Made by a program: the position numbers and the translations under genes. Positions 1 to 31,303 of a DNA stretch of 64,000 nucleotides are shown in pieces. Origin of the DNA: Cytophagaceae bacterium (GTDB lineage: Bacteria; Bacteroidota; Bacteroidia; Cytophagales; UBA9547); assembly GCA_027488865.1 (NCBI GenBank), contig JAIYAU010000058.1, forward strand, positions 2,724-66,723, written 5' to 3'. The first letter of the stretch is position 1. Each line of letters starts with the position of its first letter. The notes beneath the pieces are model-generated. The model made no database searches and was not told the DNA's origin. It worked only from the letters and a program-made list of their open reading frames with translations.

Positions 1-3000
1 CAAAATTAAACTTACCAAATAAAACTGAACGTGTACCTTCTTCTGGTTTAACCCACAGGGCATAGGTGAATGATTGTGTACTAGGCCATGAAATATCCTG
101 TTTAGTATCTATAAACCCATCTGTGCCATTAAATTGATAAGCTCCATTTGGTGTTCCTTTTCTATCAAATGTGGAAGTAACTCCCCCAGTAATTACACCA
201 TCAATATTGGTAATTAGGTCTTTGGAATCGCCATCAAATGGATAATAAGCTACTAGCCCATTATTCAAACTAGAACTTGGCAACACCACAATACTATCAG
301 ATACCGCACCTTTTTGACCAGCATTATCTATTGCGTACACCTTATATACTTGGGTAGTACAAGCTGGAAGAATAGTATAAGCAGAATTAGGTAAAATTGT
401 ACCGACAGAATCGTACGTAGCACCTGATTTTTTCAAAATAGTATAGGAGGCCACATCCGTTGCAATGTTTGGATCCCAAGTAATGGCAGAACCAGTGGTT
501 GCAAGTCCTGTTGGTTTAAATGGATGTAATGCTTTGGAATTAACCGCAACGGCAGAACCTACTATCGATCCATTGTTTCCATTACAAGTGGCATCATAAG
601 CAACGTTGCCAGAAGGCTCATCTAAGTGATAAAGCAAAACTAACCCAGCTTCACTACCAGTTAGTGGTACATCTTTATTTTGGTTTATCTCTACAGGACT
701 CCTCTCTGTGTTCCAGATTCTAACTTCATCTATTTCACCATCAAACAAAAATCCAAATCCGCCGCCCACGTTAAGATAATTGTTGGTTGGATTTATCCTT
801 ACTGGATTATTACCAACAGGAATTGACTTTACTTCTTGGCCATCCAAATAGTGCTTATAAGTTCCACCTGCTTTGTACGTAATTGCTAGGTGATGCCATT
901 GATTCAACTTATAAAACGTTTCTCCAGCAAATTGGTGAGGAGTACCATCACTTTCCCAAATCTCATTGTATATAGAGCCATCTGAATTGGTGCCCAACAC
1001 AAAATAGAAATTAGAGGATGGAATTCGCACATCACTTAAAGAAACTATTTTCTGATTTGCTAACGTCCCTGTTTTAAACCAAGCCTCTACTGTAAGCTCA
1101 TTGGTTATACCATTTTGTGCAAATTTATCATTGTATATATATTGTCCATTCAACCTAACCGCTTTTCCACTCTCAACAACTGGTACTACGGCTACTGCTT
1201 TTGACATTATACCTCCATCTGCAGAAACCCTAAAATAATAAGTGCTGTTGTTAGTTAATCCTGTGATGGTAATGTTTGGTGCTGCAATATCTATTGCTTG
1301 AGGTGTCGTACTGTTACTATCAATATCATAAACCACGGTATACTTTGTTACCCCCGAAATCGCTGGCCAGGTTAAAGTAACCGAACCATTTCCGGCAGTA
1401 GCACAAGGCTTTTGTGGTTGTAAACCAGTAGCTTGTACTGCAAAACGATAAATAGGGTTATTACAGTCATTACTTACAATTGATAGAGTATCCAACTGTA
1501 GCCCAATCGTGTCTCCTTTAAAGGTAACAATGAGATCAATAGAATCATTAGCTGCTACAGGGCCTGGAGGTGCAAAAGAGGCCGTAAAATGTTTGGAATT
1601 TGTTTGAATTATAGTGTTTACAACCAATGGAGCAGCTCCTTTATTGGTTATTTTGAATATTCTTGAAGCAGGACTATAAACGGCTCCAAAATCTGTAGAA
1701 TCATTGCCATTAGCAACCAAATCATTGGCCAATACCACAGTCTGGTTACCTCTTAGTTCTAAACTTGGTAATGGCAATATTGGGCTTAACGAGTCTATTT
1801 TAACCGCCCCAGGGGCAATCCAGTTTGAACTATTGCCATTTAGGCTAAAACCAACCAATGTTCCATCAATTCCATTGACCACGGAATCTACAAGCGTTGT
1901 GATAGTACCATTGGCACCTCCAGCCATACCTTGATTAAATGAATATTGAGCTGTAAGTCCAGTTTTATCCCTCAATCTTTCTGCACCCATGTTATTTTGT
2001 AATTCTGCTTGGCACAGGGCACGGTTCCAGATGCGGAATTCATCAAGTTTACCATTGAATGGACCCCTCTTAAGACCACATCTATCTTCTATACCAATAA
2101 ACCTGTTTGAACTTGCAGGAATAGTCACTCCTATTTTTCTTATTATGGTACTTTGCAATATTCCATTTACGTACATTTTAAAATCTAGTCCGTCATAAGT
2201 TACAGCTACGTGTGTCCAAGTGTTTAAGACTGGCGGCAGGTCTGAAGACAAATTTATTCCTGAACCTTGCACAGCTGAAAAATTGATTCTATCTGCTAAT
2301 CCAATAAAATCTCCCGCACAGGTAAGTTCTGTACCGATATAAGTAGTCCAAGCAGCACACCCTCCATTACAGCCATTGTTATAAGTAAGAATTTGACTTC
2401 CTAAAACCCGGGGGTTAATCCACATCTCCACACTAAAGTTAGCCTCTAAATTCCAAGCTGGTGAACCATTTGGTATAATTATATTATCATCCACCCCATC
2501 AAAATCCAAGGCAGCGCCTTTTTGAACAAACGCTGGCATGAACTCAGCCCTTGCCGTTTGTGATGGTATACCTATGGTATCTGCTATGGTGTTGGCCAAT
2601 GAAGCACCGCTCAAAGAGGTCCAAACTAAGCCTGTATTATCAGGTCTGGTACCCATAGAAGCCGAGGATTCATAAGGTCTGCCATTAATCTTAGTGTTAG
2701 TTGCATACTCGTAGGTGGCATTATAATTGGCAACATTTACAGGGAAAACACCAAAGTATTCTTTAGTTTGAAGGCTGTCAATACCTAAACCTTTTGCCAA
2801 AACATTTGGTGCTTCGTTTACTTTGTAGACTTGAACACCATTTTGTGCAGAAGATAGGTTAAAGCCTTTTACCGTAAATTTACTACCATCTGTAAGCGTA
2901 ACAGAACTACCTGCATTGTAGATGGATGTAGAAACATCTCCTAGAGCCGCGCCAGAAGTAACCCATGTTGGAGAATTGATTAAATAAGCATTATTGATAT

Positions 3001-6000
3001 TAATGGCTGAGTTTTCAGTTCCATAACCAATACCTTCATCAAATCTAAAGTTTAGCAACAAATTTGGCTCATTTCCTTTAAGCTTTTGACACATGTACTG
3101 TTGTATCTCAGCAGTGGTAAGTGCTTTGCTCCATATGGTCGGCTCATCCATTAATCCTTTATAAGGTACATTGCCCACAGAACTACTTCTACCGATTCTA
3201 TTGGAGGTTCTTTTTACATTGGCTAAAGCACCAGTAAGTTCCGCAGATTCTACGCGAACCCCATTAACATAGATAGAAAACGCTGAATTAGCAGGATCAT
3301 ATACGGCAGCGTAATGATTCCAAGAACCATTCTTAATAGAAACAGGTGCTACTAATGTGGCATATCCATTAATATCATTTCCAAGTTGAAAAATAAGGTC
3401 ATCGCTTAAACCATTTCTACCAAAAAAAACCAAATCACTTGATGGAAGATTACCCATATCGAAAAATCTAGCATAATCGCTCATAGTAGGATTTGCCCAA
3501 AGGCTCAATGTAAAGCCATTTGGAAAATTACCATCAAAAGCATCAAATTTAACATAGTCATCTACACCATCAAATTGTAAAGCTGTACCAGAACCAGGCT
3601 TTTTGAAAGTTGATACAATCAATTTTGAATATTCTCCAGAAGAGCCATATTGTGTTTGACCTTTAACACGGTAGAAATAAGTTCTATTCGGTGTAAGGTT
3701 ATTATCTACAAACGTACTTGATAGTTGGCTTGTCACTACAGAATAATTAGTAGTATCACCTACCGAACGTTCTAAAATGTAGTTTGTTATAGACTCCGTA
3801 CCACAATAGTTCCACTCTAAAGAAGCTTGGGTAATGGTGTGAGGAGCAGCAAGTTTTAGGTTATAAGATGCCTGTGCTGGAATTATGGTAGGAGCACCAG
3901 AATTAGGATTGTAATAGGCTTTATTGTCGGTTGTGGCACATAAACCGTTTAAAGCAATGTTTCCATTGAACGTGTTGGTACCCGTTGTAACTAAAGTAGC
4001 ACCCGCGTGTACAAAAACCGCAGAACCTTTGCCTTCCCCATTATTGGCGTTGTTGCCCCCGACTCCCCCCGCTGCATAGTTATCTACAAAATTAACACCA
4101 TCAATAGTTACATTTCCTTCATAAACAAACAAGGCACCACCTAAACCTGCTCCACCGCCTCCACCGTTAGAATTACTACCACCACAACTATTGCCGCCAT
4201 TTCCACCAAACTGGCCACTTAGCCCAGGAACTGATGGGCAATTCGCATTACCATCTGTTCTAATACCATAACCGCCTCCACCAGCAAAAAGGCCACCATC
4301 ACCTCCCTTTGTGTTACCACTCGAAATAGGATTACCTGCGCCTCCACCTCCAGAAAACAATCCTCCATTTTCACCCGGATTCCCAGGATCCACTGAGTTG
4401 CTACCGTTACCAGGTGTACCTGCAATAATTGAAAGACTACCTAATCCTCCATTACCGCCAGCCCCTCCGACCGTCCAAATGCTTGTGTTGCCTCCATTAC
4501 CACCAATGGCTTTGTTCTTATTGAAATTGACATTTTTTAAATTTACGATACTAGATGTACCTATCACTGATAAACCACCACCTAAACCAGCTCCACCACC
4601 ACCACCTGCTCCAGTTTGAATAGAATTTCCACCATCCCCACCTTTTGCCAAACCATCTGCTATGGTTAAATTACTGATATTCACTTTTGCATTATTTACT
4701 ACCAATACTGAATATAAATTATTTCCACTTACAATGGCTCCGTTGCCTACAATAGCCATTGATTTGGTAATAGCTGGCAGTGAACTGGCCAAAGTAATTG
4801 TACCAGCCGTTGTAATGTTGATTACAGAAGAATCACAAGCCAAATTGGCATTAATGATGGCTTGACGAAGTGACCCTGCTCCCGCATCCGCTAAGGTGGT
4901 AACATTAATCGTATTAATACCTGCAACCAATGGTGCACATTTACTGCCAGAAACAATTGGACTACCAGCTACAAAATTGGAGGTAGCACTTAACAAATCA
5001 AATCCGTTGAGTGTGCCATCATTGGTCCCTACAGAATCTTTTAATACAGATAGACCAACGTTATTTGCCCCTGCTATCCCTTGATTAAAATCATATCGTG
5101 CTAATAAACCAGTTTGATTGCCTGGCTTCTCACAGTTTCTGTTGTTATCGATTTCTGACGCACAAAGTGCACGATTCCAAAAGCGGAATTCATCCATTTG
5201 GCCTTTAAATCTAGATAATGGATTAACTCCTACACAAACGCTGGTACCTATTTCAAAATTATAATTATTGTTTATATTGGCAATAGCTAAATCCGAGGTT
5301 TGAAAAATCCCATCTACATACATAGACACTATTCCACCACTTCTCGTAACAGCCAAATGATGCCAAACATTATTATTAATCGTTGCAGTAGTAGATATTT
5401 CTTTGGTATTATTACCTAAACCATCTTCAATCACTGCAAACCTTGCTGTCCCTCCTTCAATGGTCATTTGGATTAAGTTATCATTATTACATATACTTCT
5501 TTTAGATAACAGGTACATATCATTACTATTCGTTTTTATCTTCATTTCAATAGTAAAATCGCCGGTGCCGACGTTTCCTAATGTTTTGTTGATAATAACT
5601 ACATCATCTACCCCATCAAAATCCAGAGCTGCACCCAAAGCATTTCCCTTAATTAAGAATTTAAACACTGGAATAGCACAATCATTAGAAGCAATTTTTA
5701 AAGTATCGGAAGCACTTCCAGTGGCAGGATTGAACCTTACCACCACTTTGGCTGAATCGTTTACAGCGATGCTGGTAGGGCTACTTAATAAACTAAATGA
5801 AGTGCCTAGGCTAAAACTGGTGTTTGTAATATTTAGTACAGAATTGCCTTTATTATAAATTTTAAATGAGGCATTTAATAAATTGCCAGATACTCCTATA
5901 TCGGTAGAATCACTAAGTGCCGGTGAAAAGTCTGCATTGGCAATCACACTTCTATTGCCTCTTAACTGAATGACAGGTTGGGTAAATATTGGTGCCAATG

Positions 6001-15000: not shown

Positions 15001-18000
15001 TTTGTTTTACTCCTCCGTTGCTTACAAAAGCTAAATGAGTCCATTTGTTTGGTTCGATTAACGAGGGTGGTGTTTGGCCATATTCCCAGCCTAATGAGGC
15101 AGCATTATCTGTGGCAAAATTTATGGACCCATCATTTATAATGGTAAACACAAACTTAACTTGTCCAAATCCACCAGCCTGTTTGGTTGCAATATTATAA
15201 TAACCATTCAGATCCTTAACTTTAACCCACGTTTCTACTGTGAAATTGCTATTTCCTGCAAAATCCAAAGCAGCTGAGGTTGGCATATTTAAGACATCAT
15301 CCACCCCATCAAAATAAATACCCCTATTGCCTACTGGTTGTGTAGGTAAAACTAAAGGAATAATTGGTTGAGCTGCGCTAAACTCAGAAGTGTTTCTGGC
15401 GGCATCTACCGCTGTAGCTGTAACACTATCGCCTAAGGTGAATGTTCCACTTAATGACCAAGTAGTGCCTGAAGCAAAAACCTTACCCAAAAATGTTTTT
15501 CCTTGAGCCTTGGTATTGGTAGCATAAGGTGCGGCATTAGAATATATGACAATAGAATCTCCCGCCGTACAAGTACCAGAGATGGTAGAAATACTGGCAC
15601 TGGTAATAACCGGTTTGGCTTTGTTGTTATTGGCGCTGGTGAGTAATGAAATCCCTTTAATTGCATTATCAAAAATACTATTTCTATAAATGAAATTACT
15701 TAGTGAGGAAGCATCTTTGATAACAATACCTCCTGCTTGGTTTGATCGGATGGTATTTCCAAAGATGCGACTATTTACCGCAGGACCATCTATTTGTATA
15801 CCTGCACCTACGTTATTAGCGATGATATTTGGAAATGTTCCGTTTTTATTGCCTATTTGGTTAGCATCTACTGAGCCACCATTTGGCGTTAGCCAAATGC
15901 CTTGATCGCCATTGGGAACTGATAATAGGCCGTTGCTGCTTGTACCAATATAGTTATTAACGACAGTATTGTTGTCACCGTCCATCAAGTGAAGTCCATA
16001 ACCTAAATTACCTGAAATTACGTTTCTAAAACCAGCCATTCCAAACCCAATGTTGTTAAAATCAGAGGATTTTACAGTAACCCCAACTCCGTTTGGCATG
16101 GCAGCAGCTCCAGTCCTGTCTACCCCTACAAAATTTCTGATAAGTGCTGTTCTTGTTGCATTTGATAAAAGAATACCATCTTGAACATTACCCGATATTA
16201 TATTAATGTCTTTGGCACTACCACCACCTATGTATATTCCATTAGAAAGAAGCGATGAAACTACCACACCAACGGTGTTTCCTTGAGCCAAACCGCCATC
16301 AGCAGTTCCAATAAAACAACCTTCAACTGTAACTGTATCTATGGTATTGGTTATATTTATACCCTTATCAAAATTGATAAAAGAGATTGCATTAATGGTT
16401 ACTTTTCCCCTTGTACCACTTGGATGGGTAACAGTTAAGCCATCAAAAGATTTATTTATACCATTTAAAATGATCTGTGGTATGGTGGCAACAGAATTAG
16501 AATCGGTATTGTCAATGTAACCCGGTTGTGATCTACCGTCGATAAAAAGGCCCTCTGTTATGGCTGGCAAAGAATAATCGAGGAAAACGATTTTATTACC
16601 AGGAAATTGTAAATCAAACGTGATAGTATCTTTGCCTGGTTTTGTATTGGCATAGTTAATAGCACGGCGTAGGTCTCCACATTGTCCGCCACTAAGAGGG
16701 TAATCATCTGTATCAGTTGTGACTATGAGGGGATTACAAGTCGGGCAGACCACCGCCGAATCAACATGGAACAGCGGCCCTACTTGACCCGAATTATCCA
16801 CTGCTACTACTCCAAACCATAAGGTATCGCAAGTACTGTAGCCTCCTAATCCAAAAGAGGTTGCTAATGGGTTGGTTACCACAGCTACGGGACTAACTGC
16901 GGTATTAATAACGGCAGATTGACTCTGGTAAATACGGAACTCTTTTATATCTGTAGCAATATTGGTAGTCCAGTTCAGGTAAACCGAGTCTCCATCTAAA
17001 GAGCCTCTTGCCATGAGTGTATCGGTATAGGGATACAAGGCTTTGGAAGTTATGCTATTGTGACTTCCTACCCAAGTAAGGTTATTGGCTAATTTTGAAT
17101 TATTAAAAGCCACTGAGCCACTGGGTTCATCCAAGTGGTACAACACTAGCAGACCCGGTTCGTTGCCAACCGCTGGTTTATCTTTGGCCGCATTTATTTG
17201 TGCAGCAGTACGCTCTACGTTCCATATCCGCACCTCATCTAGTTCACCTGAAAATACCCAGCCAAAACCATTGCCTAGTTGTAATACATTTGTAACATTC
17301 AAGACTCCAGTAGGCGCTACCATACTTTCCACCATCTGCCCATCTAAGTAAATCTGAATTAACCCTCCTGACCTAAAGGTTAAGGCAGTATGATGCCACT
17401 CGTTACTTTTAAAGCGAGTGGCATTCCCAAATCCCTTTTGTTCGACGATGCTACCATTATTCACAAAAACCTCATGGTAAAGTGTTGTATTTATAGAACC
17501 TAACACGAAAGAAAAATCGGTTGGAAGGCTTCCTCCTCCTAGTCTTGACAGGGAAACAAATTTTTGGTTATTAATGGAAGAAGTTTTAAACCAAGCTTCT
17601 ACCGTTAACTGGTCTGTGATTGCCGAAAGGTCAGCACCCTGATTTTCTAAGTATGAAGTTGCACTGCCAGTAAATACGCCAGCTCGGCCACTCTCCAAGG
17701 TCGGTACTACCACCATGCTGTCGCTAAATGGAGTATAAGTAGTACCGTCGAAAGCAACTACTTTAAATACATAAGGTTGGTCATTTAACGCCAAGGCTGG
17801 GATCGTATAAGTAGTATCGACAGTAGTTAAGGCGGTAAAAATTCCTGGCCCTAATTGTTTAAAAAATAAATCGTAAGATACAGCTCCTGGCATGGGATTC
17901 CAATGGGTGAGAATGGAGTAATTCTGACCAGAAGGATTTTTTACCGCGTAGGCACGGAAGTTTTGTGGACCTGATGGTGTAACAACCTTGGCTGCTGAAA

Positions 18001-21000
18001 ACTCAGAAGTATTATTCAACACATTTGTAGCGGTAGTTGTAATTCTATCCCCTACTGTAAATGCGCCGGCAAAACTCCAAGAAGAACCTGTGGTAGTAGC
18101 TGTGCCTAAGAATATTCGACCTTGGTTTGTGAGGCCTGATTGTGGAGAATCTTTGTAAACTTCAACAACATCGGCATTACCACATGTACCAGATATTAAC
18201 ACAGAGGATGCGGAAGTAATGTCTGGAGGCGTTATTGCGCTATTACTGCTATTTGAAAGTAAAATACCACTAGAAATATTTCCGAAAATAAAATTATTAG
18301 AAAATCTATTATTTACTGAGCCAGTGCTTGTTACTGCAATCCCATAACCGTTAAATGCTATGATATTTGCCCCGGATGCAAGCCCATTTCCAATGTTATT
18401 GTTTTGACCAGACGAAAAAGGATTGATTAATACACCTTCTCCAAGATTTCCCAAAGGAGAAGTACCATTTGCTTGCACACCAATATAATTGCCTAAAATG
18501 GTATTGTTTGATGAGGTTGAACCGTCTATCCGAATACCCGTCAAAGCTCCGCTGATGATATTGCGCTGGGCTGGGCTTGCTCCCCCAATGATGTTGTTTG
18601 AACTACCCTGTATCACCAAAGCAGTACTACTGGCTGAAGGATAGGAGGCTGTTCCTGCTGCGTTTACTCCTATATAATTACCCTCTATCACATGTCCTGC
18701 TACTCCTGAAAGCCACAATGCTCCTAATCCGCTTGACACACTTTGTGCAATTGACAAGCCTCTAACGGTAGTTGGCAATACACTGTTTAATTGTAAAGTA
18801 TTATTCGCAACTGGTGCATCCAGCTGTATAACAATATTAGCTGGTACGGCGGCAGTGGCTACAGATGCACCAAACGCGCTATACCCGTCTATTACAGCCT
18901 CCTCAGTTACGTTACTGGGAGAACCAATAAATGATTGTATGGTCCATACACCTGCCGAGTAATTTGGATCACTAGTGGGAATACTGAAATCAATATAATT
19001 TTTTCCAGCTAAAGTATTTGCTTGATTTATGACACCTCTAAAACTTTCTAGCCCACTCTCATTGGTATTTGTGACACGAAGGGCATGTAAAGGATCAGAA
19101 GAATTTAATCCAATTGTATTTCCCAAATAACCGTCACCACCAACAATTCCTGAATTTATCAGTGTTTGCCCAACACCTTCATCCATTTCAAAATATGCTT
19201 CTGCACCTATAGGCCCTTGTGTTAGCATATCAGAGGCAATATCAGCATCGCCTCTTGTAAGATAAAATACTCGTAATTGATCTACCAGCATTTTAGCAGG
19301 TACATTTCTACCGAAATCAATATTTCCTAAAATTAAGGGGTTGGGAGAATTGACTGCCCCGGATAAACCTGTCTTTGTAAAAATCAAAGAGCCATCTTTA
19401 AATACTTTTAATATGCCCTGATCGTCATAAGTTAATGCCAAATGCACCCATTTGTTCATTTCAATAACACCAGGTACATCGTCATACAATTGCCTTCCAA
19501 TTTCTGGGCCAAAACTAACTCTTAATGTAGAATAATTGTTAATTTCTAGAGATACTCCATTAGACCCTAAACTAGGTAAGTTACTGATGATATAGGAGTT
19601 ATTATTATTCAACATAGGCTTCAGCCAAAACTCAATGGTGAGATTATCAGTTGAAGGTATTGTTCCAAAAGTGGCTATATCATCTACCCCATCAAAATAT
19701 AAGCCTTGGTTACCTGCTGGTTGGGTAGTAGGTATAACTACTGCATTAACTACTGGTTTGGCAGCTGAAAACGATGAGCTGTTGTTTGATAAGGAAGTCG
19801 CGATGGCAGTTACATTATCTCCTAAGTTAAAAGTACCTGTAAACGTCCAGTTACCAGAACCATCCGTCAGTGTAGTACCTACAAAATTTGTACCTTGCTC
19901 AGGAATGCAACCACTGCCATCTAGATAGATATCCACAACATCCCCTATCGCAGCAGTTCCAGTTATTGATGTGGTGGTTGCTGTAAGTATGATAGGCGGG
20001 GCTTGATTATCGTTAGCCGCTCCAGTAAGTTTGATACCTGCATTAACATTACAATAAATTTTATTACCCCTAATTTGATTCTGTACACCTGTGGGCTCTA
20101 CATAAACCCCATCAAAATAACCATAAGCAATGATATTGGGTTCTCCTGCACCTATACCTCCTACAAGATTCCGATTTGATTCTAACGAAATTCCGTTGTT
20201 ATTAGGTACCGAGATTGTGTTGTCGGTGCCTACTCCAATTCTGTTATTGTAAAACGTGTTATTGTCACTTGATAAACCTTTAACCATTATTGCATAATCT
20301 AACCCAGCGAAATAGTTATTAGAAACTAAGGAATTGGCTGCGTTAATATATATACCTACCGCATCAAAGGTGGTTAAAGAACTAGATAATCCATCATTAT
20401 TGAGACCTATGAAATTATTGACCACCCTATTATTATTGGCAGTCAATAAAATGCCATTGCTAGCGTTCGCATAAATCAGATTTCGATCAGCATTTAAGTT
20501 TGTTCCAATTGAATTGTTTATACCATAAATGGAAATACCATTGCCCAAAGCATTAACAACAGTTCCATCTGCCTTAGCATTAATTTTACATCCTTTTATA
20601 AAATTGCCAGAAGAGGCTATATCAAAACAGGTTGCACTAAACCCATAGATAGCAAGCCCTCTAAAAATAGCTCTCCCATTGATACCTACATCAATGCCAT
20701 TATCCACACCAAGAAGCCCGGATATTTCAATAGTATGTGTACTGTTATCAGTGGTAGTGGCGGTGTTGGGCTTACTACCAAATTGGGAATAGCCATCTAT
20801 AAATAAAGAATCTTCCGTAATAACTACTTTATTTTCTAAAGTAATGGTGGCCACTCCTGAAACATAATTAGGATCCGTGGCTGGAATACTGAAATCAATA
20901 TAGCTTTTGGTAAGATCAGAATTTGATAGTTTGATTGCATTTCTAAAACTACCAGTTGGAGGATTTGCAGCTAATGCGTCTTCAAGCGTATTTGTTACGC

Positions 21001-21718
21001 GATAGGCACGTTTAGGGTCTGTAGGTTCGTCGGAATTATCAGAACCAAGTTTACCATGAAAAGAGTTGGTAGAGGCATCCAGTATATTTTGTCCGCTAGG
21101 TTCATCAAAATGGTACAAGGCAATAGTATTAACATCTGAGTTAAAAAAATTGGCGGGTGTAAAATTACTAATGTATCGAGAATTATCAGAAAGACGGAGT
21201 TCATCTATTTGACCTCTAAAATATTCACCTAAGGAGGATGCGCCTATTTTAGCTATCCCTGAATTAGGAGAGGCACCACCTGAACCAGTGACAATAGGAC
21301 CAATTATAATACCGTCAATAAAAAAGTAACAATCCCCAAATTGTCTTACTCCTGCCACATGATGCCAAGCATTGTTCAACAAGCTGGTTCGGGCAAAACT
21401 TTGTGAAACATAAATAGTTCCATTGCGCCAAAATCGGAATTGCGCTGTATTATTGTCTACACCAAAGATTCCAAACTTAATGCCATTAATACCGTCTTCT
21501 TTTGAATAAATACATTGAAATTCATTTGCTCGAAGGCTGTCCATCTTTATCCAAGCCTCTGCAGTAATAGTACCAGTAGGCAAATGCAATTGACCAGATC
21601 CAGATAATTCTACCTTATCATTTACACCATCAAAATATAAACCTTGGTTACCAGCAGGTTGGGCATAAACAACCGTGGCCACCAGTGAAAAGAAAAGGAT
21701 TGTAAATAGTTTTTTCAT
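1..21718 (-). CDS. Giant secreted multidomain adhesin-like protein, partial (C-terminus beyond window edge; at least 7,239 codons). Contains signal peptide, at least 13 LamG/ConA-like lectin domains, 6 right-handed beta-helix segments, Ig/FN3-like domains, IPT/TIG, a 7-blade FG-GAP propeller and a Gly-rich Pmp-like region
   Basis: ATG at 21718-21716 is followed by MKKLFTILFFSLVATVVYA|QPAGNQGLYFDGVND. The same minus frame (first codon base = 1 mod 3) was hand-translated at more than 15 checkpoints and always gave domain-like sequence. Examples: LDEVRIWNVERTAAQI (~17.23 kb), GSLRQAINDAN (~14.64 kb), GDFNGDGKLDL (~10.42 kb), MDEVRIWNRALCQTEI (~7.31 kb), IDEVRIWNTERSPVEI (~0.72 kb), LWVKPEEGTRSVLFGKFNF (nt 58-2). 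The track lists no closed minus-strand ORF in this frame, which fits an ORF running off the window. Confidence 0.85.
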   Translation of the reverse strand, partial: MKKLFTILFFSLVATVVYAQPAGNQGLYFDGVNDKVELSGSGQLHLPTGTITAEAWIKMDSLRANEFQCIYSKEDGINGIKFGIFGVDNNTAQFRFWRNGTIYVSQSFARTSLLNNAWHHVAGVRQFGDCYFFIDGIIIGPIVTGSGGASPNSGIAKIGASSLGEYFRGQIDELRLSDNSRYISNFTPANFFNSDVNTIALYHFDEPSGQNILDASTNSFHGKLGSDNSDEPTDPKRAYRVTNTLEDALAANPPTGSFRNAIKLSNSDLTKSYIDFSIPATDPNYVSGVATITLENKVVITEDSLFIDGYSQFGSKPNTATTTDNSTHTIEISGLLGVDNGIDVGINGRAIFRGLAIYGFSATCFDIASSGNFIKGCKINAKADGTVVNALGNGISIYGINNSIGTNLNADRNLIYANASNGILLTANNNRVVNNFIGLNNDGLSSSLTTFDAVGIYINAANSLVSNNYFAGLDYAIMVKGLSSDNNTFYNNRIGVGTDNTISVPNNNGISLESNRNLVGGIGAGEPNIIAYGYFDGVYVEPTGVQNQIRGNKIYCNVNAGIKLTGAANDNQAPPIILTATTTSITGTAAIGDVVDIYLDGSGCIPEQGTNFVGTTLTDGSGNWTFTGTFNLGDNVTAIATSLSNNSSSFSAAKPVVNAVVIPTTQPAGNQGLYFDGVDDIATFGTIPSTDNLTIEFWLKPMLNNNNSYIISNLPSLGSNGVSLEINNYSTLRVSFGPEIGRQLYDDVPGVIEMNKWVHLALTYDDQGILKVFKDGSLIFTKTGLSGAVNSPNPLILGNIDFGRNVPAKMLVDQLRVFYLTRGDADIASDMLTQGPIGAEAYFEMDEGVGQTLINSGIVGGDGYLGNTIGLNSSDPLHALRVTNTNESGLESFRGVINQANTLAGKNYIDFSIPTSDPNYSAGVWTIQSFIGSPSNVTEEAVIDGYSAFGASVATAAVPANIVIQLDAPVANNTLQLNSVLPTTVRGLSIAQSVSSGLGALWLSGVAGHVIEGNYIGVNAAGTASYPSASSTALVIQGSSNNIIGGASPAQRNIISGALTGIRIDGSTSSNNTILGNYIGVQANGTSPLGNLGEGVLINPFSSGQNNNIGNGLASGANIIAFNGYGIAVTSTGSVNNRFSNNFIFGNISSGILLSNSSNSAITPPDITSASSVLISGTCGNADVVEVYKDSPQSGLTNQGRIFLGTATTTGSSWSFAGAFTVGDRITTTATNVLNNTSEFSAAKVVTPSGPQNFRAYAVKNPSGQNYSILTHWNPMPGAVSYDLFFKQLGPGIFTALTTVDTTYTIPALALNDQPYVFKVVAFDGTTYTPFSDSMVVVPTLESGRAGVFTGSATSYLENQGADLSAITDQLTVEAWFKTSSINNQKFVSLSRLGGGSLPTDFSFVLGSINTTLYHEVFVNNGSIVEQKGFGNATRFKSNEWHHTALTFRSGGLIQIYLDGQMVESMVAPTGVLNVTNVLQLGNGFGWVFSGELDEVRIWNVERTAAQINAAKDKPAVGNEPGLLVLYHLDEPSGSVAFNNSKLANNLTWVGSHNSITSKALYPYTDTLMARGSLDGDSVYLNWTTNIATDIKEFRIYQSQSAVINTAVSPVAVVTNPLATSFGLGGYSTCDTLWFGVVAVDNSGQVGPLFHVDSAVVCPTCNPLIVTTDTDDYPLSGGQCGDLRRAINYANTKPGKDTITFDLQFPGNKIVFLDYSLPAITEGLFIDGRSQPGYIDNTDSNSVATIPQIILNGINKSFDGLTVTHPSGTRGKVTINAISFINFDKGINITNTIDTVTVEGCFIGTADGGLAQGNTVGVVVSSLLSNGIYIGGGSAKDINIISGNVQDGILLSNATRTALIRNFVGVDRTGAAAMPNGVGVTVKSSDFNNIGFGMAGFRNVISGNLGYGLHLMDGDNNTVVNNYIGTSSNGLLSVPNGDQGIWLTPNGGSVDANQIGNKNGTFPNIIANNVGAGIQIDGPAVNSRIFGNTIRSNQAGGIVIKDASSLSNFIYRNSIFDNAIKGISLLTSANNNKAKPVITSASISTISGTCTAGDSIVIYSNAAPYATNTKAQGKTFLGKVFASGTTWSLSGTFTLGDSVTATAVDAARNTSEFSAAQPIIPLVLPTQPVGNRGIYFDGVDDVLNMPTSAALDFAGNSNFTVETWVKVKDLNGYYNIATKQAGGFGQVKFVFTIINDGSINFATDNAASLGWEYGQTPPSLIEPNKWTHLAFVSNGGVKQIFVNGVEQTVTLTGVINSQLSATVSSSPWTFGTAAGGWGGGHFSGQLDEIRIFSAARNSAQIQLDMGSTLPNGAVAYWNFEESNGLTTTSQPIGFDATLSNGILRALRVTDNTDLGTAGLGSLRQAINDANTDADQDYIDFSIQQTVAGIGGVQNININSAILSVINPVFIDGYSAFGSSSNTLNVGNNANLRIQLDFAGLGLNTGLELKGISNSIVQGLSLINKSGVAGEHALGINTASSNITVQGCWFGIAASGTPASNYNNININSSQILVGGSTPASRNVISNAQFNGVVVSGTNNSVVNNYIGTNPNGTSALLNGIAANGPNGGRGIWFETASNGLIQGNVISGGIIPIRFTTNSNNNKIIGNLIGLQPDGVTALGNLREVQVLSGSSNNTFGGINASDANIFANSTTLAILLDGSSTNGNRIVRNSIYDNNGGISLTSGANANKSKPIVTSATPSLVSGTCTAGDSLEVFANTIPYPANTKAQGKTFLGRVFSTGTTWSLPGTFNLGDSITAIAMDASKNTSEFSAARAIIPLVLPTQPLGNRGIYLEGNPTAGSNLVTATAVSNAIDNVTLEAWVKLAKLPTGLAFVAYNGNSSANGYGIYIDPTGNASIFIAGLGGVNFTAPIELNKWTHIAIVKNGNWDLYINGVITPYVPSWPQNSSPVPPTGSLVIGNGFGETNGFPGQLDEVRIFNTARTSAQIQLDMGSTLPNGAVGYWNFEELNGNVATDISGNGNSATFVHTPLRALRVTDNTDVGTAGLGSLRQAVNDANTDADTDYIDFSIQQANLTAVSTINGGANPTITAINPVIIDGYSAYGSSTNTISKGTNAELRVNLTRSGGDVITIASAGSIIKGLAFYTSAGSISNIKLGGTGQHKVLGCFVGTNTLATTVPGINSNVRGITIDAGSNNNQIGDTSLSSRNLISGNEEGMFINGNGTRVYNNYFGTQKDSATVLGNTFSSALIGGNNTLFGGISTREANITTAGVRALYVYPGAINNSFRGNRSYGHAVMTIDLNPNATTANDVIAGSEDNDAGPNNLQNSPEFTTILGMPNGDLSGKVRVRTRTSNAAYPLTIDLYQSDATGNSKNYLGTVNYIGTSALSYIDFNLTPLSKIVAGNTIVAAVTDALGNSSELSAAKVVQVPPIITSFTPTSGIVGTPITINGLNFNPSGPNDVYFGAVKVVGTANPAGTSITVNVPQGASSLAPIIVRNNANGLQVSSNESILGTGTRVFTVTNTPTLTPNYNRTDIGTGLQAYQIETADFNNDGKTDFAYADGANNRVGFYIGNGDGTFVGPTYVTVGNTTRSLAIADFNGDGFQDLAIAREATNNGIDIWLWNGTNNFTLKGNYSVGAILPRDVKVADINKDGLWDVVTANQGMGSNNISILFGDGTGALGTASTNALISSPINLAVGDFNGDGYPDVASSNNVTSTVRLFSGNGTSIFTNLIIKSLLPFGSDPFSTIAADIDADGDQDIITAAVNTNNIVKLKGDGTGNFPNPISADSMYVGGQIYPNALKYGDFNGDGKLDLGFGNYTGNVAGIMLGDGPGNFAKPLNFGVVNAPSSMAIGDFNGDGKTDFITGNSKLSVMLFAALPPVATAATNVTKSSFLGMWKKYPGATSYELSVSTSPTFLTQPTGYPKTGITDTFDVVTGLTANTIYYYRVRAFDGTSYSPVSNTKMTSTILPPGSGNSITLDGVNDYVDLGPGYADFTNGLTMSIWIKPTNNATFARLFDLGNGASQDNIMLFRNAGAPTVGFYMYNGGVLSGQMPAGANSLVLNEWQQIVLTIDPSRTVKIYRNGILRNSTVISAMPINVLRNNCYIGKSSGPDPYLQAGIDEATIWNRALTEAEIQAIMCKKLKGDELGLVYYDRFDENTGAITENKAKRSTTDGVLVGSPTWAISGAPLGDVSTSLYNTGSSVTLLDGDNFTAKGFSLAAEQGIQVYKVNEAPNSILRGAGMDSLQTSRYFGVFPVNITNYKATYDYNVNTKINGRSYEGSASMASRVDNAATIWNSLGGATLAKPLADTMGIPSQTARAEFLAAFVQPGAALDFDGVNDVVNLPPSSGLNFSGTDNFTFEAWVKTDLAGNASIASFRTNGCGGNQTGFSVVAGRPLMYVDATCADIYTVNTTLQTVSPNVWTHLAYLYRNDGSISIYVNGVEQAVTTNGPRSTIWSGLGNIWVLGKVHQIYGGLGVENVPTSLDEVRIWNRAICQVEIQNNIGATRLRNKNGLVTHYSFNQGIAGSINAGLTVLKDSVGTNDGNVSGFNLFGNTSNWIAPGAVKSDSLAPILSQPIIQVRGNKILIANKDFTPTIIDSTDFGLSGGLIKRSFTIYNKGNSILNITNTSFSLGTSFAVLSSPASIAANDSAKVVVRFNPATGSATDTLKIASNDCAIPVFKFLVKGNALGAALDFDGVNDVVSIPHKTELNAFPLTVETWFKAPNDNGGCYYGLVNKYGSNDNNGWSLFRVNGDIAGFYYADVNNYLSFKTTGGTTNDGAWHHAALVVDNSGGRLYIDGVLKISQAWTGSPSPTTSTKDVSLGNYPNDVQTYCTSASNIFKGSMDEVRIWNRALCQTEILNNIGATKLPASSKVGLLAQYSFNQGIANGINTTITAVKDSLGTNDGTISGLALSGTTSNFIAPGAVKSDSLAPVILKPLIQVRGNKTIISHRDFTPSILDSTDFGLSGGLIKRSFTIYNKGNSVLNITNTSFSLGTSFAVLSSPANIAANDSAKVVVRFNPATGSASDTLKIASNDCAIPVFKFLVKGSALGAALDFDGVNDKIISNNLNLVDFGTNPFTVEAWFKTSDTKDQVIFSNRYDASNGNFFNVQINSGTIVLEIDGGSYKNGITSTTYNDGNWHHVAISRDGLKTDLIIDGNLVKSVINTTVANVTRNFGLLIGFRYANGVEVGFFKGQMDEVRVWNRALCQAEIQRYIGATKLPASATGLLSHYSFNQGVAGVDNSGSVLLKDSVSTNDATLFGFNLNGATSNWVYPGAVKSDSLAPIFTQPVIQLRGNRSVIANADFSPALSDSTDIGVSGNLLNASFKIYNKGNSVLNITNTSFSLGTSFSLLSSPTSIAVNDSAKVVVRFNPATGSASDTLKIASNDCAIPVFKFLIKGNALGAALDFDGVDDVVIINKTLGNVGTGDFTIEMKIKTNSNDMYLLSKRSICNNDNLIQMTIEGGTARFAVIEDGLGNNTKEISTTATINNNVWHHLAVTRSGGIVSMYVDGIFQTSDLAIANINNNYNFEIGTSVCVGVNPLSRFKGQMDEFRFWNRALCASEIDNNRNCEKPGNQTGLLARYDFNQGIAGANNVGLSVLKDSVGTNDGTLNGFDLLSATSNFVAGSPIVSGSKCAPLVAGINTINVTTLADAGAGSLRQAIINANLACDSSVINITTAGTITLASSLPAITKSMAIVGNGAIVSGNNLYSVLVVNNAKVNISNLTIADGLAKGGDGGNSIQTGAGGGGGAGLGGGLSVIGTSSIVNLKNVNFNKNKAIGGNGGNTSIWTVGGAGGNGGLGSLSIIAGTPGNGSNSVDPGNPGENGGLFSGGGGAGNPISSGNTKGGDGGLFAGGGGYGIRTDGNANCPSVPGLSGQFGGNGGNSCGGSNSNGGGGGAGLGGALFVYEGNVTIDGVNFVDNYAAGGVGGNNANNGEGKGSAVFVHAGATLVTTGTNTFNGNIALNGLCATTDNKAYYNPNSGAPTIIPAQASYNLKLAAPHTITQASLEWNYCGTESITNYILERSVGDTTNYSVVTSQLSSTFVDNNLTPNRTYFYRVKGQTQYGSSGEYSKLIVSTFKKPGSGTALQFDGVDDYVKFDAFDGNFPNGFTLSLWANPTMSDYARFFDMGNLPSSDLVFFGRNGLSDDLIFQLGNDINGYATLVAPVSIKNGSWNHYAAVYDPANSAFSIYVNGVRVESAELTGALANVKRTSNRIGRSSSVGNVPYKGLMDEPTIWSKALTTAEIQQYMCQKLKGNEPNLLLNFRFDEGIGYGTENSAININNAYLINSPTWVTSGAALGDVSTSIYNAGSSVTLTDGSKFTVKGFNLSSAQNGVQVYKVNEAPNVLAKGLGIDSLQTKEYFGVFPVNVANYNATYEYATNTKINGRPYESSASMGTRPDNTGLVWTSLSGASLANTIADTIGIPSQTARAEFMPAFVQKGAALDFDGVDDNIIIPNGSPAWNLEANFSVEMWINPRVLGSQILTYNNGCNGGCAAWTTYIGTELTCAGDFIGLADRINFSAVQGSGINLSSDLPPVLNTWTHVAVTYDGLDFKMYVNGILQSTIIRKIGVTIPASSNRFIGIEDRCGLKRGPFNGKLDEFRIWNRALCQAELQNNMGAERLRDKTGLTAQYSFNQGMAGGANGTITTLVDSVVNGIDGTLVGFSLNGNSSNWIAPGAVKIDSLSPILPLPSLELRGNQTVVLANDLVANGNDSTDFGAVYSPASRIFKITNKGAAPLVVNTIIQTNSKHFTASFAPPGPVAANDSIDLIVTFKGDTIGLQLDTLSIVSNDCNNPIYRFAVQATGLQPQKPCATAGNGSVTLTWPAISGVTKYTVVYDIDSNSTTPQAIDIAAPNITITGLTNNSTYYFRVSADGGIMSKAVAVVPVVESGKAVRLNGQYIYNDKFAQNGITNELTVEAWFKTGTLANQKIVSLSDVRIPSSNFYFVLGTNSDGSIYNEIWESDGTPHQFAGETFYKLNQWHHLAITYKAGGTYKHYLDGQEVKSIPVGNNPVRINPTNNYLNVGGGFGFLFDGEIDEVRIWNTERSPVEINQNKDVPLTGSEAGLVLLYHLDEPSGNVAYDATCNGNNGSIVGSAVAVNSKALHPFKPTGLATTGSAITWDPNIATDVASYTILKKSGATYDSVGTILPNSAYTILPACTTQVYKVYAIDNAGQKGAVSDSIVVLPSSSLNNGLVAYYPFDGDSKDLITNIDGVITGGVTSTFDRKGTPNGAYQFNGTDGFIDTKQDISWPSTQSFTYALWVKPEEGTRSVLFGKFNF
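3960..4660 (-). repeat. Gly-rich low-complexity region with GGA(L/I)-type and FxxN-type motifs (polymorphic-membrane-protein-like repeats) inside the giant ORF
   Basis: Translation gives QTGAGGGGGAGLGGGLSVI (~4600) and NGGGGGAGLGGALFVYEGNVTIDGVNFVD (~4100). The region is preceded by ADAGAGSLRQAIINAN (~4870). The Pro-rich plus-strand ORF 4311..4619 in the track is its antisense shadow. Confidence 0.6.
5400..8850 (-). repeat. Three to four tandem coding repeats of about 1.06-1.09 kb; each unit is a LamG-like domain plus an ASH/choice-of-anchor-D-like Ig domain
   Basis: The string ccccatcaaaatcca recurs at 5611, 6667, 7753 and 8833. After the first three copies, the next ~300 nt are about 90% identical. 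Translation of 7741-8160 gives FGLSGGLIKRSFTIYNKGNSILNITNTSFSLGTSFAVLSSPASIAANDSAKVVVRFNPATGSATDTLKIASNDCAIPVFKFLVKG. The LamG halves (MDEVRIWNRAL at ~7310, ~6245, ~8390) are much more diverged. Confidence 0.8.
10240..11580 (-). other. IPT/TIG domain followed by seven FG-GAP/VCBS repeats (integrin-alpha-like 7-blade propeller) inside the giant ORF
   Basis: Translation gives PPIITSFTPTSGIVGTPITINGLNF (IPT-like, ~11.56 kb). Seven Ca-binding-type motifs follow at about 155-nt spacing: ADFNNDGKTDF, ADFNGDGFQDL, ADINKDGLWDV, GDFNGDGYPDV, ADIDADGDQDI, GDFNGDGKLDL, GDFNGDGKTDF. Confidence 0.7.
11950..21660 (-). repeat. Five-fold coding super-module (about 1.9-2.3 kb each): LamG-like domain, then parallel beta-helix, then Ig-like domain
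   Basis: Module junctions read TQP(A/V/L)GN(Q/R)G(L/I)Y(F/L)(D/E)G at ~21660, 19725, 15340 and 13370. Helix openers of type GSLRxAIxxAN occur at ~20940 (GSFRNAIKLSN, read less carefully than the others), ~19050, ~16680 (GDLRRAINYAN), ~14640 (GSLRQAINDAN) and ~12700 (GSLRQAVNDAN). Modules at 15.3 and 13.4 kb are about 75-85% identical by eye at nucleotide level. Confidence 0.7.
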
Positions 21719-22148
21719 AGGAAAATCGTCTATGGCTAGTATTTTATATGTATGTTATTCCAAGAAAACCTCTTGAAATTAATATTAATAGTGTTAATAA
21801 GAATCAAACTAATATCGGAAATACAGCTGGAAAATGGTGTAAAGCCACCTAACCAAATTGTACGAAGTTTTATAAAAGTTATATGTAGTGACTTAATAAA
21901 AGCACTAAAACTTTGAAATAACAAAATCAAGACAAAAAGAGGATGTCTCATAGCTAATTAGAAGTAAATAAGAAAATTGTAAAGTACATTTCTCTTACTT
22001 ACAAAGATATATACTAAAATTGAGAAAATTGTCACCAAGCATAATAAAGTTTGTTCAATAAGAGGAAGTTAGTTGTGAAAAGAGAATGGTTCGTCTGAAT
22101 CACAGATTTACATAGATGTCACGGATTAGATGTGCATGGTGAATGGTT

Positions 22149-22180
22149 GTCTGAACTATGATTTTTTTGATTTAGGTGAT
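22149..22180. repeat. 32-nt sequence identical to 30501-30532; the two copies bracket the tandem paralog pair
   Basis: gtctgaactatgatttttttgatttaggtgat is present at both coordinates. A degenerate partial copy (gtctgaatcacagattt) lies at ~22093. Confidence 0.8.
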
Positions 22181-22189
22181 TGACAGGAT

Positions 22190-22259
22190 GGATAATGGGA
22201 TAATTGATAATTGATAATTGTCAATTATCAACTTTCAATTATCAATTATCAATTATTCC
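22190..22259. repeat. AT-rich heptamer-based imperfect palindrome directly downstream of the stop of gene 22265..26113; possible terminator hairpin
   Basis: ggataat-gggataat-tgataat-tgataat-tg | tcaatta-tcaactt-tcaatta-tcaatta-tcaatta. The arms are largely complementary. Confidence 0.6.
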
Positions 22260-26196: not shown

Positions 26197-26255
26197 AAGA
26201 AAAGTAGGATAATATTGGTCATGGGAAAGGGATTATTTTTACAGAAATTGAAAAG

Positions 26256-26388
26256 AGAATGATGAATTGATAATGGAGAATTGAGAATGGAGAATTGAGA
26301 ATGACGAATGATGAATTGATAATGGAGAATGGATAATTTTCAACTATCAATTGTTAATTTTCAATTATCAATTATCAACTATCAATTG
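26256..26388. repeat. About 12 tandem heptamers (K-G-A-K-A-A-T) followed by a block of roughly complementary ATTATCA-type heptamers; long imperfect palindrome between the two paralogs
   Basis: gagaat gatgaat tgataat ggagaat tgagaat ggagaat tgagaat gacgaat gatgaat tgataat ggagaat ggataat | ttcaactatcaattgttaattttcaattatcaattatcaactatcaattg. Confidence 0.7.
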
Positions 26389-30733: not shown

Positions 30734-31303
30734 TTAAGCCAATTCTTGTTCTCTGGTGGTTTTATTGCCAGGGCGATCTGTGGCTGTTACCTCAAGCTTG
30801 CTGCCAACTACATTGGTATTGGCCACTGTGGCCAAGAATACCCATTCTATGCCATTTTCTTCGGGCAAGGCAAGGCCGGTCTCTAACAAGGTGCCATCGG
30901 CGTTGAAGATACTTACTCTCACCGACATTACCTCAAAATCATCTACTGCTCGCACGGTGATAGCGTCCCCTACTTTGCCGCTGTAACCAACAGCATCAAT
31001 ATAGGAAACCACGGGCTTGCTGAGGTAGTCGCCCACAGCGGCTTGGTAAGCATTGTTACTGCCTTGTCGGTTACCCAGTTCTTGGTACTCAGCCCTCAGC
31101 ACAATGTCCTTTAAGATACGCTTGCCATATAAAGTGGCTTCCTTAAACCGGACTTGAGCCTCTTGTTGTTTTAAGGTGAACCCTGCCCTTCTCTTTGGAT
31201 TTACATAGAGAACGGTATTACCCCTTTGGCTACGAAATACCATGTCGTGACTTACTTTACCGCTAATCCCTCTTGTGAAATTGTTTTCTTTTACGATACC
31301 CAT
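30734..31303 (-). CDS. Hypothetical 189-aa protein: basic N-terminal half and an Ig-like beta-sandwich-looking C-terminal half; divergent from the WYL regulator gene
   Basis: Clean ATG ORF with its own terminator and no signal peptide. The family was not recognised with confidence. Confidence 0.6.
   Translation of the reverse strand: MGIVKENNFTRGISGKVSHDMVFRSQRGNTVLYVNPKRRAGFTLKQQEAQVRFKEATLYGKRILKDIVLRAEYQELGNRQGSNNAYQAAVGDYLSKPVVSYIDAVGYSGKVGDAITVRAVDDFEVMSVRVSIFNADGTLLETGLALPEENGIEWVFLATVANTNVVGSKLEVTATDRPGNKTTREQELA

Follow-up and report, generated by a model that had tools for sequence, protein, structure and literature searches.

SprB of Flavobacterium johnsoniae, which comprises about 6,500 aa, is a giant cell-surface protein of the Bacteroidota, and the RTX/Bap/LapA-type adhesins of the T1SS combine large size with a repetitive, β-rich extracellular architecture and are presumed to mediate adhesion. 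Large Bacteroidota T9SS cargo proteins annotated as 'LamG-like jellyroll fold' or 'choice-of-anchor D domain-containing' (P0001, P0022, P0038; P0136, P0159, P0186, P0218) are built from Laminin_G_3, ASH/DUF1573/HYDIN Ig-like, fn3, and FG-GAP domains and a domain of ~190 aa. The gene described here, which lies in a window of 64,000 nucleotides (the whole stretch of DNA that was analysed), encodes a protein that uses the same domain vocabulary as these cargo proteins, begins as they do with a signal peptide followed by LamG, and is 28–50% identical to them over multi-domain stretches. It resembles SprB as a giant Bacteroidota cell-surface protein with presumed T9SS export, and shares size, architecture, and presumed role with the T1SS adhesins. 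The initial annotation had placed it by size among the largest bacterial adhesins, such as SprB-type gliding adhesins and giant RTX/Bap proteins, and its length of at least 7,239 aa does match that of the largest adhesins of the Bacteroidota.

Results

The giant ORF (2..21718, minus strand) represents the first 21.7 kb, at the 5′ end, of a single genuine gene on the chromosome of a Cytophagales-like Bacteroidota bacterium. It comprises 7,239 codons, with domain matches throughout, and its 3′ end is cut at the window edge, there being no stop codon within the window. When window positions 2..21718 were reverse-complemented and translated by machine, the 7,239 codons contained no stop, in agreement with the initial annotation, which had described a single long minus-strand frame that was never left. 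At the base composition of the window, a stop is expected in ~6.8% of codons, and a run of 7,239 codons without one would therefore arise by chance with a probability of ~1e-221; in the other frames of the window, the longest open stretch reaches 1,303 codons. The open stretch extends a further 12 codons upstream of ATG 21718 (7,251 in total) to an in-frame stop, and because ATG, GTG, and TTG are all absent from these 12 codons, no start codon precedes ATG 21718. The ORF is covered end to end by Pfam domains or internal paralogue matches, and at 0.27 its GC3 (the G+C content of third codon positions) lies within the range of 0.21–0.30 seen for the housekeeping genes of the window. The ORF list, by contrast, contains only 26 ORFs of 60–151 aa for 1..21718. 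This list leaves out ORFs that run off either end of the sequence, and the track looks 'empty' because the stop of the giant ORF lies beyond the edge, which had been correctly proposed as the sole reason for its invisibility. Genes leaving the window vanish in this blind spot of the ORF track, which here hides a third of the window.

The ORF opens with a putative Sec-type signal peptide (aa 1–20, MKKLFTILFFSLVATVVYAQ; 21659..21718, minus strand), read from the translation and judged by eye on the N-terminus MKKLFTILFFSLVATVVYAQ|PAGN. The same layout, in which the signal peptide is directly followed by ..GNRG[LIM]YFDG.., occurs in the closest relatives P0159, P0223, P0147, and P0149. Upstream lies an AT-rich intergenic region of 546 nt (21719..22264, minus strand) with a TAnnTTTG motif (22002–22009, minus strand) and a sigma-70-like match (22004–21976). 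The promoter and terminator scans of this region gave matches no better than those in shuffles, and assigning a promoter to either element, neither being enriched over shuffles, would be only a guess. Rfam gave no match in the window.

After the signal peptide, the protein consists of five [LamG + right-handed β-helix module] units, TIG, an FG-GAP region, fn3, eight LamG domains with spacers, and a partial fourteenth LamG. LamG 1–5 (aa 30–187, 676–828, 1351–1509, 2137–2302, and 2799–2946; PF13385 and an internal HMM, E 1e-39 to 1e-52) alternate with β-helix modules 1–4 (aa 188–675, 829–1350, 1510–2136, and 2303–2798; assigned from Pfam, paralogy, alignment, and an AF2 model) within 12881..21631 of the minus strand. 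Module 5 (aa 2947–3390; 11549..12880, minus strand) follows and is 35% identical to module 4 over ~500 aligned columns. The central region (9968..11560, minus strand), assigned from Pfam, comprises TIG/IPT (aa ~3387–3462; PF01833, E 6.7e-7), the FG-GAP repeats (aa ~3490–3830; PF13517, E 1e-47, seven FG-GAP_3 stretches; PF01839, E 4.6e-27), for which family membership suggests a propeller fold, and a weakly matching fn3 (aa ~3837–3917, E 2.6e-3). LamG 6–13 (aa 3937–4093, 4294–4458, 4654–4818, 5016–5171, 5368–5524, 6050–6206, 6407–6574, and 6856–7012; 683..9910, minus strand) were assigned with the internal HMM (E 1e-42 to 1e-50), PF13385, and PF02210. The frame ends (2..682, minus strand) with an fn3-like segment (aa 7013–7150), which is paralogous to aa 1512–1660 (37% identity over 150 aa, blastp), and the first ~86 aa of LamG 14 (from aa ~7154), recognised by PF13385 profile positions 1–32 at the very end of the frame and by the motif GLVAYYPFDG at aa 7154, and cut by the window edge.

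PF13385 (Laminin_G_3) scores are 241–416 bits against a Pfam gathering cutoff of 27.6, with 13 complete copies mapped, and the LamG copies are 15–44% identical to one another. LamG domains (13 complete and one partial) account for 30% of the residues, whereas the five β-helix modules account for 36%, so the initial annotation's view of the protein as LamG-dominated has to be amended; its contention that the protein is unlike known giant adhesins is upheld in that Pfam scans covering the whole frame contained no SprB repeats (PF13573) and no RTX/HemolysinCabind or Bap-type repeats. The secreted-protein families that it had named were likewise found in large part (PF13385, PF13229, PF13517/PF01839, and PF01833), but PF02415 (Chlamydia PMP) was not detected, either at E≤0.01 in the whole frame or at E≤1 in the inter-LamG segments including the glycine-rich segment.

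The spacers between LamG 6–13 (roughly 200–525 aa) contain Ig-like/fn3 domains, an uncharacterised all-β domain, and one glycine-rich β-helix-like segment. Three paralogous spacers of ~195 aa (aa 4459–4653, 4819–5015, and 5172–5367; 5618..8344, minus strand), interleaved with LamG 8 and LamG 9 and related by blastp among the spacers, are 70–80% identical in amino acid sequence and 75–80% in DNA. They correspond to an Ig-like domain of the choice-of-anchor D/DUF1573/HYDIN type (PF22544, PF07610, and NF012200, the last just under its curated cutoff), and a fourth, more distant copy is found by blastp together with fn3 at aa 6575–6855 (nt 1154–1996, minus strand). The uncharacterised all-β domain of ~190 aa is present as copy A (aa 4094–4293; 8840..9439, minus strand) and copy B (aa 6207–6406; 2501..3100, minus strand), which are 64% identical. 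For copy A, Pfam and NCBIfam gave no match, and its AF2 model (pLDDT 78) had no significant match in a fold search of the PDB. Homologues of this domain come after LamG domains in many relatives. The remaining spacer (aa 5525–6049; 3572..5146, minus strand), delineated by motif search and Pfam, begins with 'GAGSLRQAIINAN', a cap like that of the β-helix modules, and continues with a glycine-rich (GGxGG) segment, which has no Pfam or NCBIfam family match, and a weak fn3-like match (aa ~5959–6033, E 4.7e-4).

Of the eight complete relatives with the closest similarity, seven have TIGR04183 (type A) at the C-terminus and one (P0159) has TIGR04131 (type B). Four of the eight have a signal peptide followed by LamG at the N-terminus, and relatives with this layout do carry sorting domains. 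Four other genes of the window match Por_Secre_tail (type A sorting domain), two of them under the curated cutoffs, and the window contains a PorE-like/CHU_0125-like gene that scores under its curated cutoff; the T9SS core genes sprA and porKLMN are not found within the window. From this context we infer that the giant protein would be exported by the T9SS, with a type A sorting domain more likely than type B. A host that probably bears a T9SS would point to a route other than the T1SS.

The same observations bear on whether the protein might be a motility adhesin like SprB, i.e. a T9SS type B cargo of the gliding machinery that has a PorP/SprF-type partner and is propelled along the cell surface. 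Its size class near that of SprB is consistent with such a role, as are the Cytophagales-like lineage, in which gliding is common, the type B sorting domain of the close relative P0159, and the presence of PF13585 or PF13573 in some distant homologues. However, PF13573 is absent from the whole-frame Pfam scan, the closest complete relatives are predominantly of type A, and no sprF/porP-like gene is visible, its expected position being downstream and outside the window. We consider this role unlikely.

The β-helix modules are 28–49% identical to one another (modules 1–4). When modules 1–4 were scanned singly, three of the four matched PF13229/PF05048 and module 2 (aa 829–1350) gave none; two modules exceeded the PF13229 cutoff of 25.9 bits (37.5 and 26.2 bits), one exceeded the PF05048 (NosD) cutoff of 23.6 bits (35 bits), and the others were below cutoff or without a match. 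An AF2 model of one module has a β-helix core with low to moderate confidence (pLDDT 59), and Foldseek searches with this model returned mostly right-handed β-helix proteins (best E 2.8e-7, TM 0.2–0.39). β-helix folds also occur in polysaccharide lyases and epimerases, so that single modules might conceivably be enzymatically active. Conserved caps particular to the modules, 'GSLRQAINDANTD..DYIDFSI' and '..NTSEFSAA', are captured by no NCBIfam model. The GSLRQAI cap resembles, as a lead only, the CSLREA/choice-of-anchor Q β-helix proteins; no such NCBIfam family was matched at E≤0.1 by any module.

An alternative reading is that the protein is a surface-tethered multi-enzyme, in which the β-helix modules are lyases, epimerases, or depolymerases and the LamG domains are carbohydrate-binding modules, forming a polysaccharide-degrading array on a single chain. 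The Foldseek matches include tailspike depolymerases, AlgG epimerase, PL6 alginate lyases, and fucoidan lyase alongside the PfbA adhesin, weak PF05048 (NosD) and AlgG sequence matches are present, and LamG often accompanies glycan-active enzymes. However, the TM-scores indicate a generic fold only, and the AlgG match (E 0.03), which we rejected as an identity for the module, is a generic coil repeat of 60 residues, with no DPHD motif anywhere. In an alignment of all five modules (A1), the invariant residues of the helix core are, with few exceptions, G, N, I, or L; none is acidic, basic, or His. This pattern, together with the missing DPHD-type motif, suggests that the modules serve structure or binding rather than catalysis. 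PDB sequence searches with single modules and with the module profile yielded nothing significant, and NCBIfam contained no significant family match. A degradative array thus described is, in our view, improbable.

The initial annotation had implied that such a protein is unusual, which the database searches contradict: a search with its first 1,200 aa matched 29,639 database representatives, and among the best 150 of these, 19 exceed 5,000 aa, the longest reaching 7,459 aa. The giant protein itself gave no self-match among the representatives, the best being 43–50% identical over parts of the query. In a second protein library no homologue exceeded 42% identity and all matches were ≤2,046 aa, which suggests a length limit there. 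A Cytophagales MAG contig (JAAFIH010000039.1, locus L003) carries a frame that stays open for at least 7,333 aa, leaves both ends of the 22 kb examined, and contains tandem [LamG + β-helix module] units 35–40% identical to aa 1664–3200 of the giant protein. The size of this frame suggests an orthologue, but ~2,200 aa align, all in the LamG/β-helix part, whereas the remainder is unrelated at blastp E≤1e-20, and L003 is thus a mosaic relative. Peptide-pattern scans of genome and metagenome contigs with the last 500 aa of the giant ORF gave no match. Exact matches of the neighbouring proteins were seen only in Logan contigs of 1.5–3.6 kb (runs SRR30952584, SRR30952591, and SRR30952595).

In a blastn self-comparison of the giant ORF, the best internal DNA repeat was ~80% over 657 nt, with no near-identical internal DNA repeats, and TRF reported no tandem array; with DNA self-identity at or below ~80%, repeat collapse is therefore unlikely. 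It is highly improbable that mis-assembly, by collapse or chimeric joining of repeats from shorter genes, produced the long frame, or that the frame is a non-functional relic. In favour of an artefact or a relic, the source is apparently an unannotated NCBI assembly contig of 130.8 kb, neither of the two protein libraries searched contains the giant protein, and modular repeat proteins are a classic site of mis-assembly. Against it, the modules are old and divergent, with repeat identity far under what assemblers collapse; 21.7 kb is kept in frame, which neither a false junction nor a pseudogene in decay would do; GC3 is host-like; and relatives of 5,000–7,459 aa are frequent.

Discussion

We propose, with a probability of roughly 70%, that the gene encodes a T9SS-exported giant protein of the cell surface that is adhesin-like, non-enzymatic, fibre-like, and multidomain. 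This reading is based on the open frame, the host-like GC, the LamG, β-helix, TIG, FG-GAP, fn3, and Ig-like domains, the T9SS context, and the sorting domains of the relatives. TIG, FG-GAP, fn3, and Ig-like domains are characteristic of stalk and binding proteins found outside the cell. In the proposed mechanism, Sec would take the chain across the inner membrane, and the T9SS would export it across the outer membrane by means of a C-terminal sorting domain encoded beyond the window. After export the protein would remain on the cell surface, where its LamG domains (at least 14, divergent and lectin-like), together with the β-helix modules and FG-GAP region, may mediate multivalent binding to polysaccharides, particles, and other cells.

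The giant protein would then be a further lectin-like surface protein of very large size, multivalent and probably exported by the T9SS. Proteins of this kind probably control how cells attach to particles, algae, or prey. The gene itself raises no new question. Two of its building blocks, the capped β-helix module and the ~190 aa all-β domain that follows LamG, are widespread yet uncharacterised. A more speculative idea, which we regard as a long shot, is that the gene runs far past the window and that the [LamG + capped β-helix] unit and the ~190 aa domain are undescribed glycan-binding or glycan-processing modules across many phyla rather than an inert stalk. The protein is missing from a library with relatives as long as 7,459 aa, which would be consistent with its exceeding some length cutoff; if the gene does extend so far, its product would be among the largest Bacteroidota proteins.

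The likeness to described systems is in each case partial. SprB has a type B sorting domain and SprF, whereas the giant protein lacks PF13573 and its relatives are mostly of type A. The RTX/Bap/LapA-type adhesins differ from the giant protein, in which no RTX/HemolysinCabind or Bap-type repeats were found and which has a putative cleavable Sec signal peptide; T1SS adhesins, to our knowledge, have no such N-terminal peptide. The predicted fold of the five modules (~440–630 aa) resembles that of the PfbA adhesin, phage tailspikes, AlgG/AlgE, and PL6 lyases, but there is no significant sequence relationship to these proteins, and the modules are without conserved catalytic residues. The Bacteroidota LamG T9SS cargo proteins are mostly 1,000–5,500 aa long, and the giant protein, at 7,239 aa or more, exceeds nearly all of them in length; none is colinear with it over its whole length, and they are mosaics rather than orthologues. 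Judged by its sequence, the giant protein is one more of an already known kind, with thousands of similar proteins in public databases.

The Giant Open Reading Frame

Machine translation of the reverse complement of window positions 2 to 21718 gave 7,239 codons with no stops, which confirms the giant minus-strand ORF that the initial annotation had translated by hand. An in-frame stop lies upstream of ATG 21718 after 12 further open codons, none of which is ATG, GTG, or TTG, making ATG 21718 the first possible start. Stops are expected in ~6.8% of random codons at the base composition of the window, so that the chance of an open frame of 7,239 codons is ~1e-221; no other frame of the window stays open for more than 1,303 codons. 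The ORF track, which omits ORFs running off the source sequence, lists only 26 ORFs of 60–151 aa over positions 1 to 21718, and the explanation first offered for this apparently empty region, i.e. that the giant ORF is invisible because its stop lies outside the window, is therefore right. The G+C content at third codon positions (GC3) of the giant ORF (0.27) falls within the range observed for pgk, fusA, ligA, and other window genes (0.21–0.30), and the ORF is covered end to end by Pfam domains or internal paralogue matches.

Domain Architecture

The giant protein (numbered such that nt = 21718 − 3(aa − 1)) has a signal-peptide-like start: its N terminus, MKKLFTILFFSLVATVVYAQ|PAGN, reads by eye as a Sec signal peptide (aa 1–20). 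The N-terminal half comprises five units, each consisting of a LamG domain of ~155 aa (starting at aa 30, 676, 1351, 2137, and 2799) followed by a module of 440–630 aa (modules 1–5; aa 188–675, 829–1350, 1510–2136, 2303–2798, and 2947–3390). A TIG domain (aa ~3387–3462) and an FG-GAP repeat region with seven FG-GAP_3 stretches (aa ~3490–3830), then fn3, precede the C-terminal half, where LamG domains 6–13 start at aa 3937, 4294, 4654, 5016, 5368, 6050, 6407, and 6856, and the beginning of a 14th occupies the last 86 residues in the window. Four kinds of spacer separate the LamG domains of this half: three ~195 aa spacers with 70%–80% mutual identity, each containing an Ig-like domain of the choice-of-anchor D/DUF1573/HYDIN type; a related Ig-like plus fn3 spacer (aa 6575–6855); two copies, 64% identical, of a ~190 aa domain without a family (aa 4094–4293 and 6207–6406); and a 525-aa segment (aa 5525–6049) that opens with a further “GSLRQAI” cap and continues through a glycine-rich GGxGG region to an fn3-like end. 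LamG domains make up 30% of residues and the five modules 36%, such that the initial description of the protein as LamG-dominated is overstated; the presence of PF02415 is not borne out, the rest of that reading being largely right.

Modules 1–5 share 28%–49% mutual identity and have conserved caps (“PLRALRVTNT..GLGSLRQAINDANTD..DYIDFSI”, “FIDGYSAFGS”, and a C-terminal “..GD.ITA.ATD...NTSEFSAA”). Three of the four modules scanned singly reached or approached the threshold of Pfam Beta_helix or NosD, and module 2 scanned in this way had no Pfam match. Modeled by AF2 from an alignment with its four paralogues, module 4 shows a β-helix core, at moderate confidence only (pLDDT 59, pTM 0.65). Foldseek comparison of this model with the PDB returned mostly right-handed β-helix proteins, including phage tailspikes, AlgG/AlgE epimerases, PL6 lyases, and the pneumococcal adhesin PfbA, with E values down to 2.8e-7 and TM scores of only 0.2–0.39. 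PDB sequence searches with single modules or a profile gave nothing significant; a relationship to AlgG was rejected, the sole match being a generic 60-residue coil (E 0.03). A resemblance of the GSLRQAI cap to the “CSLREA” and choice-of-anchor Q families was not confirmed, as no NCBIfam family matched the modules better than E 0.005. When GTDB species genomes were scanned with the module alignment, the β-helix module was located in many phyla, including Bacteroidota, Verrucomicrobiota, Planctomycetota, Acidobacteriota, Chloroflexota, and Cyanobacteria.

The ~190 aa domain (window 8840–9439 and 2501–3100, minus strand) has no Pfam or NCBIfam match, and occurs directly after LamG in dozens of relatives; T9SS sorting domains are present in many of these proteins. 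Its AF2 model is all-β (pLDDT 78, core about 90), and comparison with PDB folds gave nothing significant (best E 0.06, TM ≤0.41). Conserved residues include C4, K6, Y62, Y92, G117, and W160. It may represent a domain family that has yet to be described.

Relatives

The first 1,200 aa of the giant protein matched 29,639 representatives at E ≤1e-3 (2,478 at E ≤1e-30). Among the best 150 of the 29,639, 66 are longer than 3,000 aa and 19 longer than 5,000 aa, with a maximum of 7,459 aa. None of the relatives is colinear with the giant protein over its whole length; each is a mosaic built from the same modules. Four of the closest (P0159, P0223, P0147, and P0149) share its start, a signal peptide followed by “..GNRG[LIM]YFDG..”. 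At the C termini of the eight closest complete relatives, TIGR04183 (type A) is present in seven and TIGR04131 (type B) in one (P0159). The best match of the GTDB module scan was a Cytophagales MAG contig (JAAFIH010000039.1, 34,522 nt), on which a frame is open across all 22 kb fetched (positions 1–22001; at least 7,333 aa) and continues past both ends. It shares the LamG plus β-helix part at 35%–40% identity, and only its aa ~3,300–5,500 resemble the giant protein; its predicted product is another giant mosaic surface protein.

The giant protein itself is present in neither the homologue nor the representatives library. In the homologue search the 120 listed matches were all ≤2,046 aa, and the representatives library gave no self-hit, though proteins of the neighboring genes are in the collection. 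Very long proteins thus seem to be excluded from both libraries, in which case giant proteins are systematically under-reported by these searches.

Genomic Context and Host

The giant ORF lies in a T9SS-rich context. Immediately upstream on the same strand are two tandem paralogues of 1,282 and 1,290 aa (window 22265–26113 and 26452–30324, minus strand), each with ~13 copies of a 123-nt (41-aa) Ycf48/BNR-like repeat and, at the C-terminal end, a nearly identical T9SS type A sorting domain. They share 81% DNA identity over ~4 kb, flanks included, and the copy scanned with Pfam has a cohesin-like match. Their GC3 is 0.44, versus 0.21–0.30 in all other genes checked, an atypical composition that may reflect recent acquisition or repeat-driven bias. 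Just downstream of both stop codons are AATTATC/GATAATT heptamer arrays (window 22197–22259 and 26255–26387) forming nested inverted repeats of 20–24 nt. Having neither a G+C-rich stem nor a T-run, they were rejected as classical terminators, and could represent AT-rich hairpins or, ahead of the giant gene, an array of sites bound by a regulator.

Farther along, the window has genes for a 552-aa type A cargo, a WYL/WCX regulator, and an S8 peptidase whose weak Por_Secre_tail match falls just under the Pfam cutoff; pgk, fusA, ligA, and a PorE-like/CHU_0125-like gene are also located there. The PorE-like gene (TPR plus PD40, 511 aa; window 36426–37961, minus strand) matches only positions ~4–500 of ~640-residue profiles, with scores far below cutoffs, and seems to be without the C-terminal OmpA-like part of PorE. 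The WYL/WCX regulator (window 31756–32748, plus strand) is divergent from the gene for a 189-aa protein matching no family (30734–31303, minus strand), a pair that is kept on Logan contig L083.

The nearest other sequence to the window LigA, from a Logan assembly, is 80% identical, and named matches are all ≤64% (Cyclobacteriaceae, Cytophagales, and Flammeovirgaceae MAGs), indicating a Cytophagales-like Bacteroidota host with no close named relative. LigA, PGK, EF-G, and the 1,290-aa protein of the window are singletons, and identical genes are otherwise confined to Logan contigs of 1.5–3.6 kb (runs SRR30952584, SRR30952591, and SRR30952595). The host lineage is poorly sampled, and very probably possesses a T9SS.

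Proposed Role and Alternatives

The giant protein would enter the periplasm via Sec, be exported by the T9SS via a C-terminal sorting domain lying beyond the window, and be retained on the cell surface. There its at least 14 divergent LamG lectin-like domains, together with the β-helix modules and the FG-GAP region, could bind multivalently, with the Ig-like and fn3 domains serving as spacers to hold these binding elements out from the cell. That it is instead an SprB-like motility adhesin we consider unlikely. The DPHD motif is absent throughout the giant protein in the window, and nearly all invariant helix-core residues in the five-module alignment are G, N, I, or L. The modules thus read as structural or binding elements, not enzymes, though single copies may be active; on the same grounds a tethered multi-enzyme appears slightly less probable still than a motility adhesin. 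TRF detected no tandem array inside the giant ORF. An assembly artefact or remnant is very improbable, since repeats as divergent as these (LamG copies with 15%–44% mutual protein identity; best DNA self-match ~80% over 657 nt) are not collapsed during assembly, and 21.7 kb would not have stayed in frame across an artefactual join.

Surface binding by the giant protein would have a parallel in Ekhidna algicida, where putatively secreted proteins with LamG-like domains have been read as adhesion-related (PMC12998431). With respect to size, proteins of 5,000–10,000 aa are treated as a routine class by West-Roberts et al. (bioRxiv 10.1101/2023.11.21.568195), who call proteins “large” only above 10,000 aa and “giant” only from 30,000 aa upward. 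The giant protein does not represent a new kind of system, but adds a new and very large example to a common class of modular surface proteins of T9SS type.
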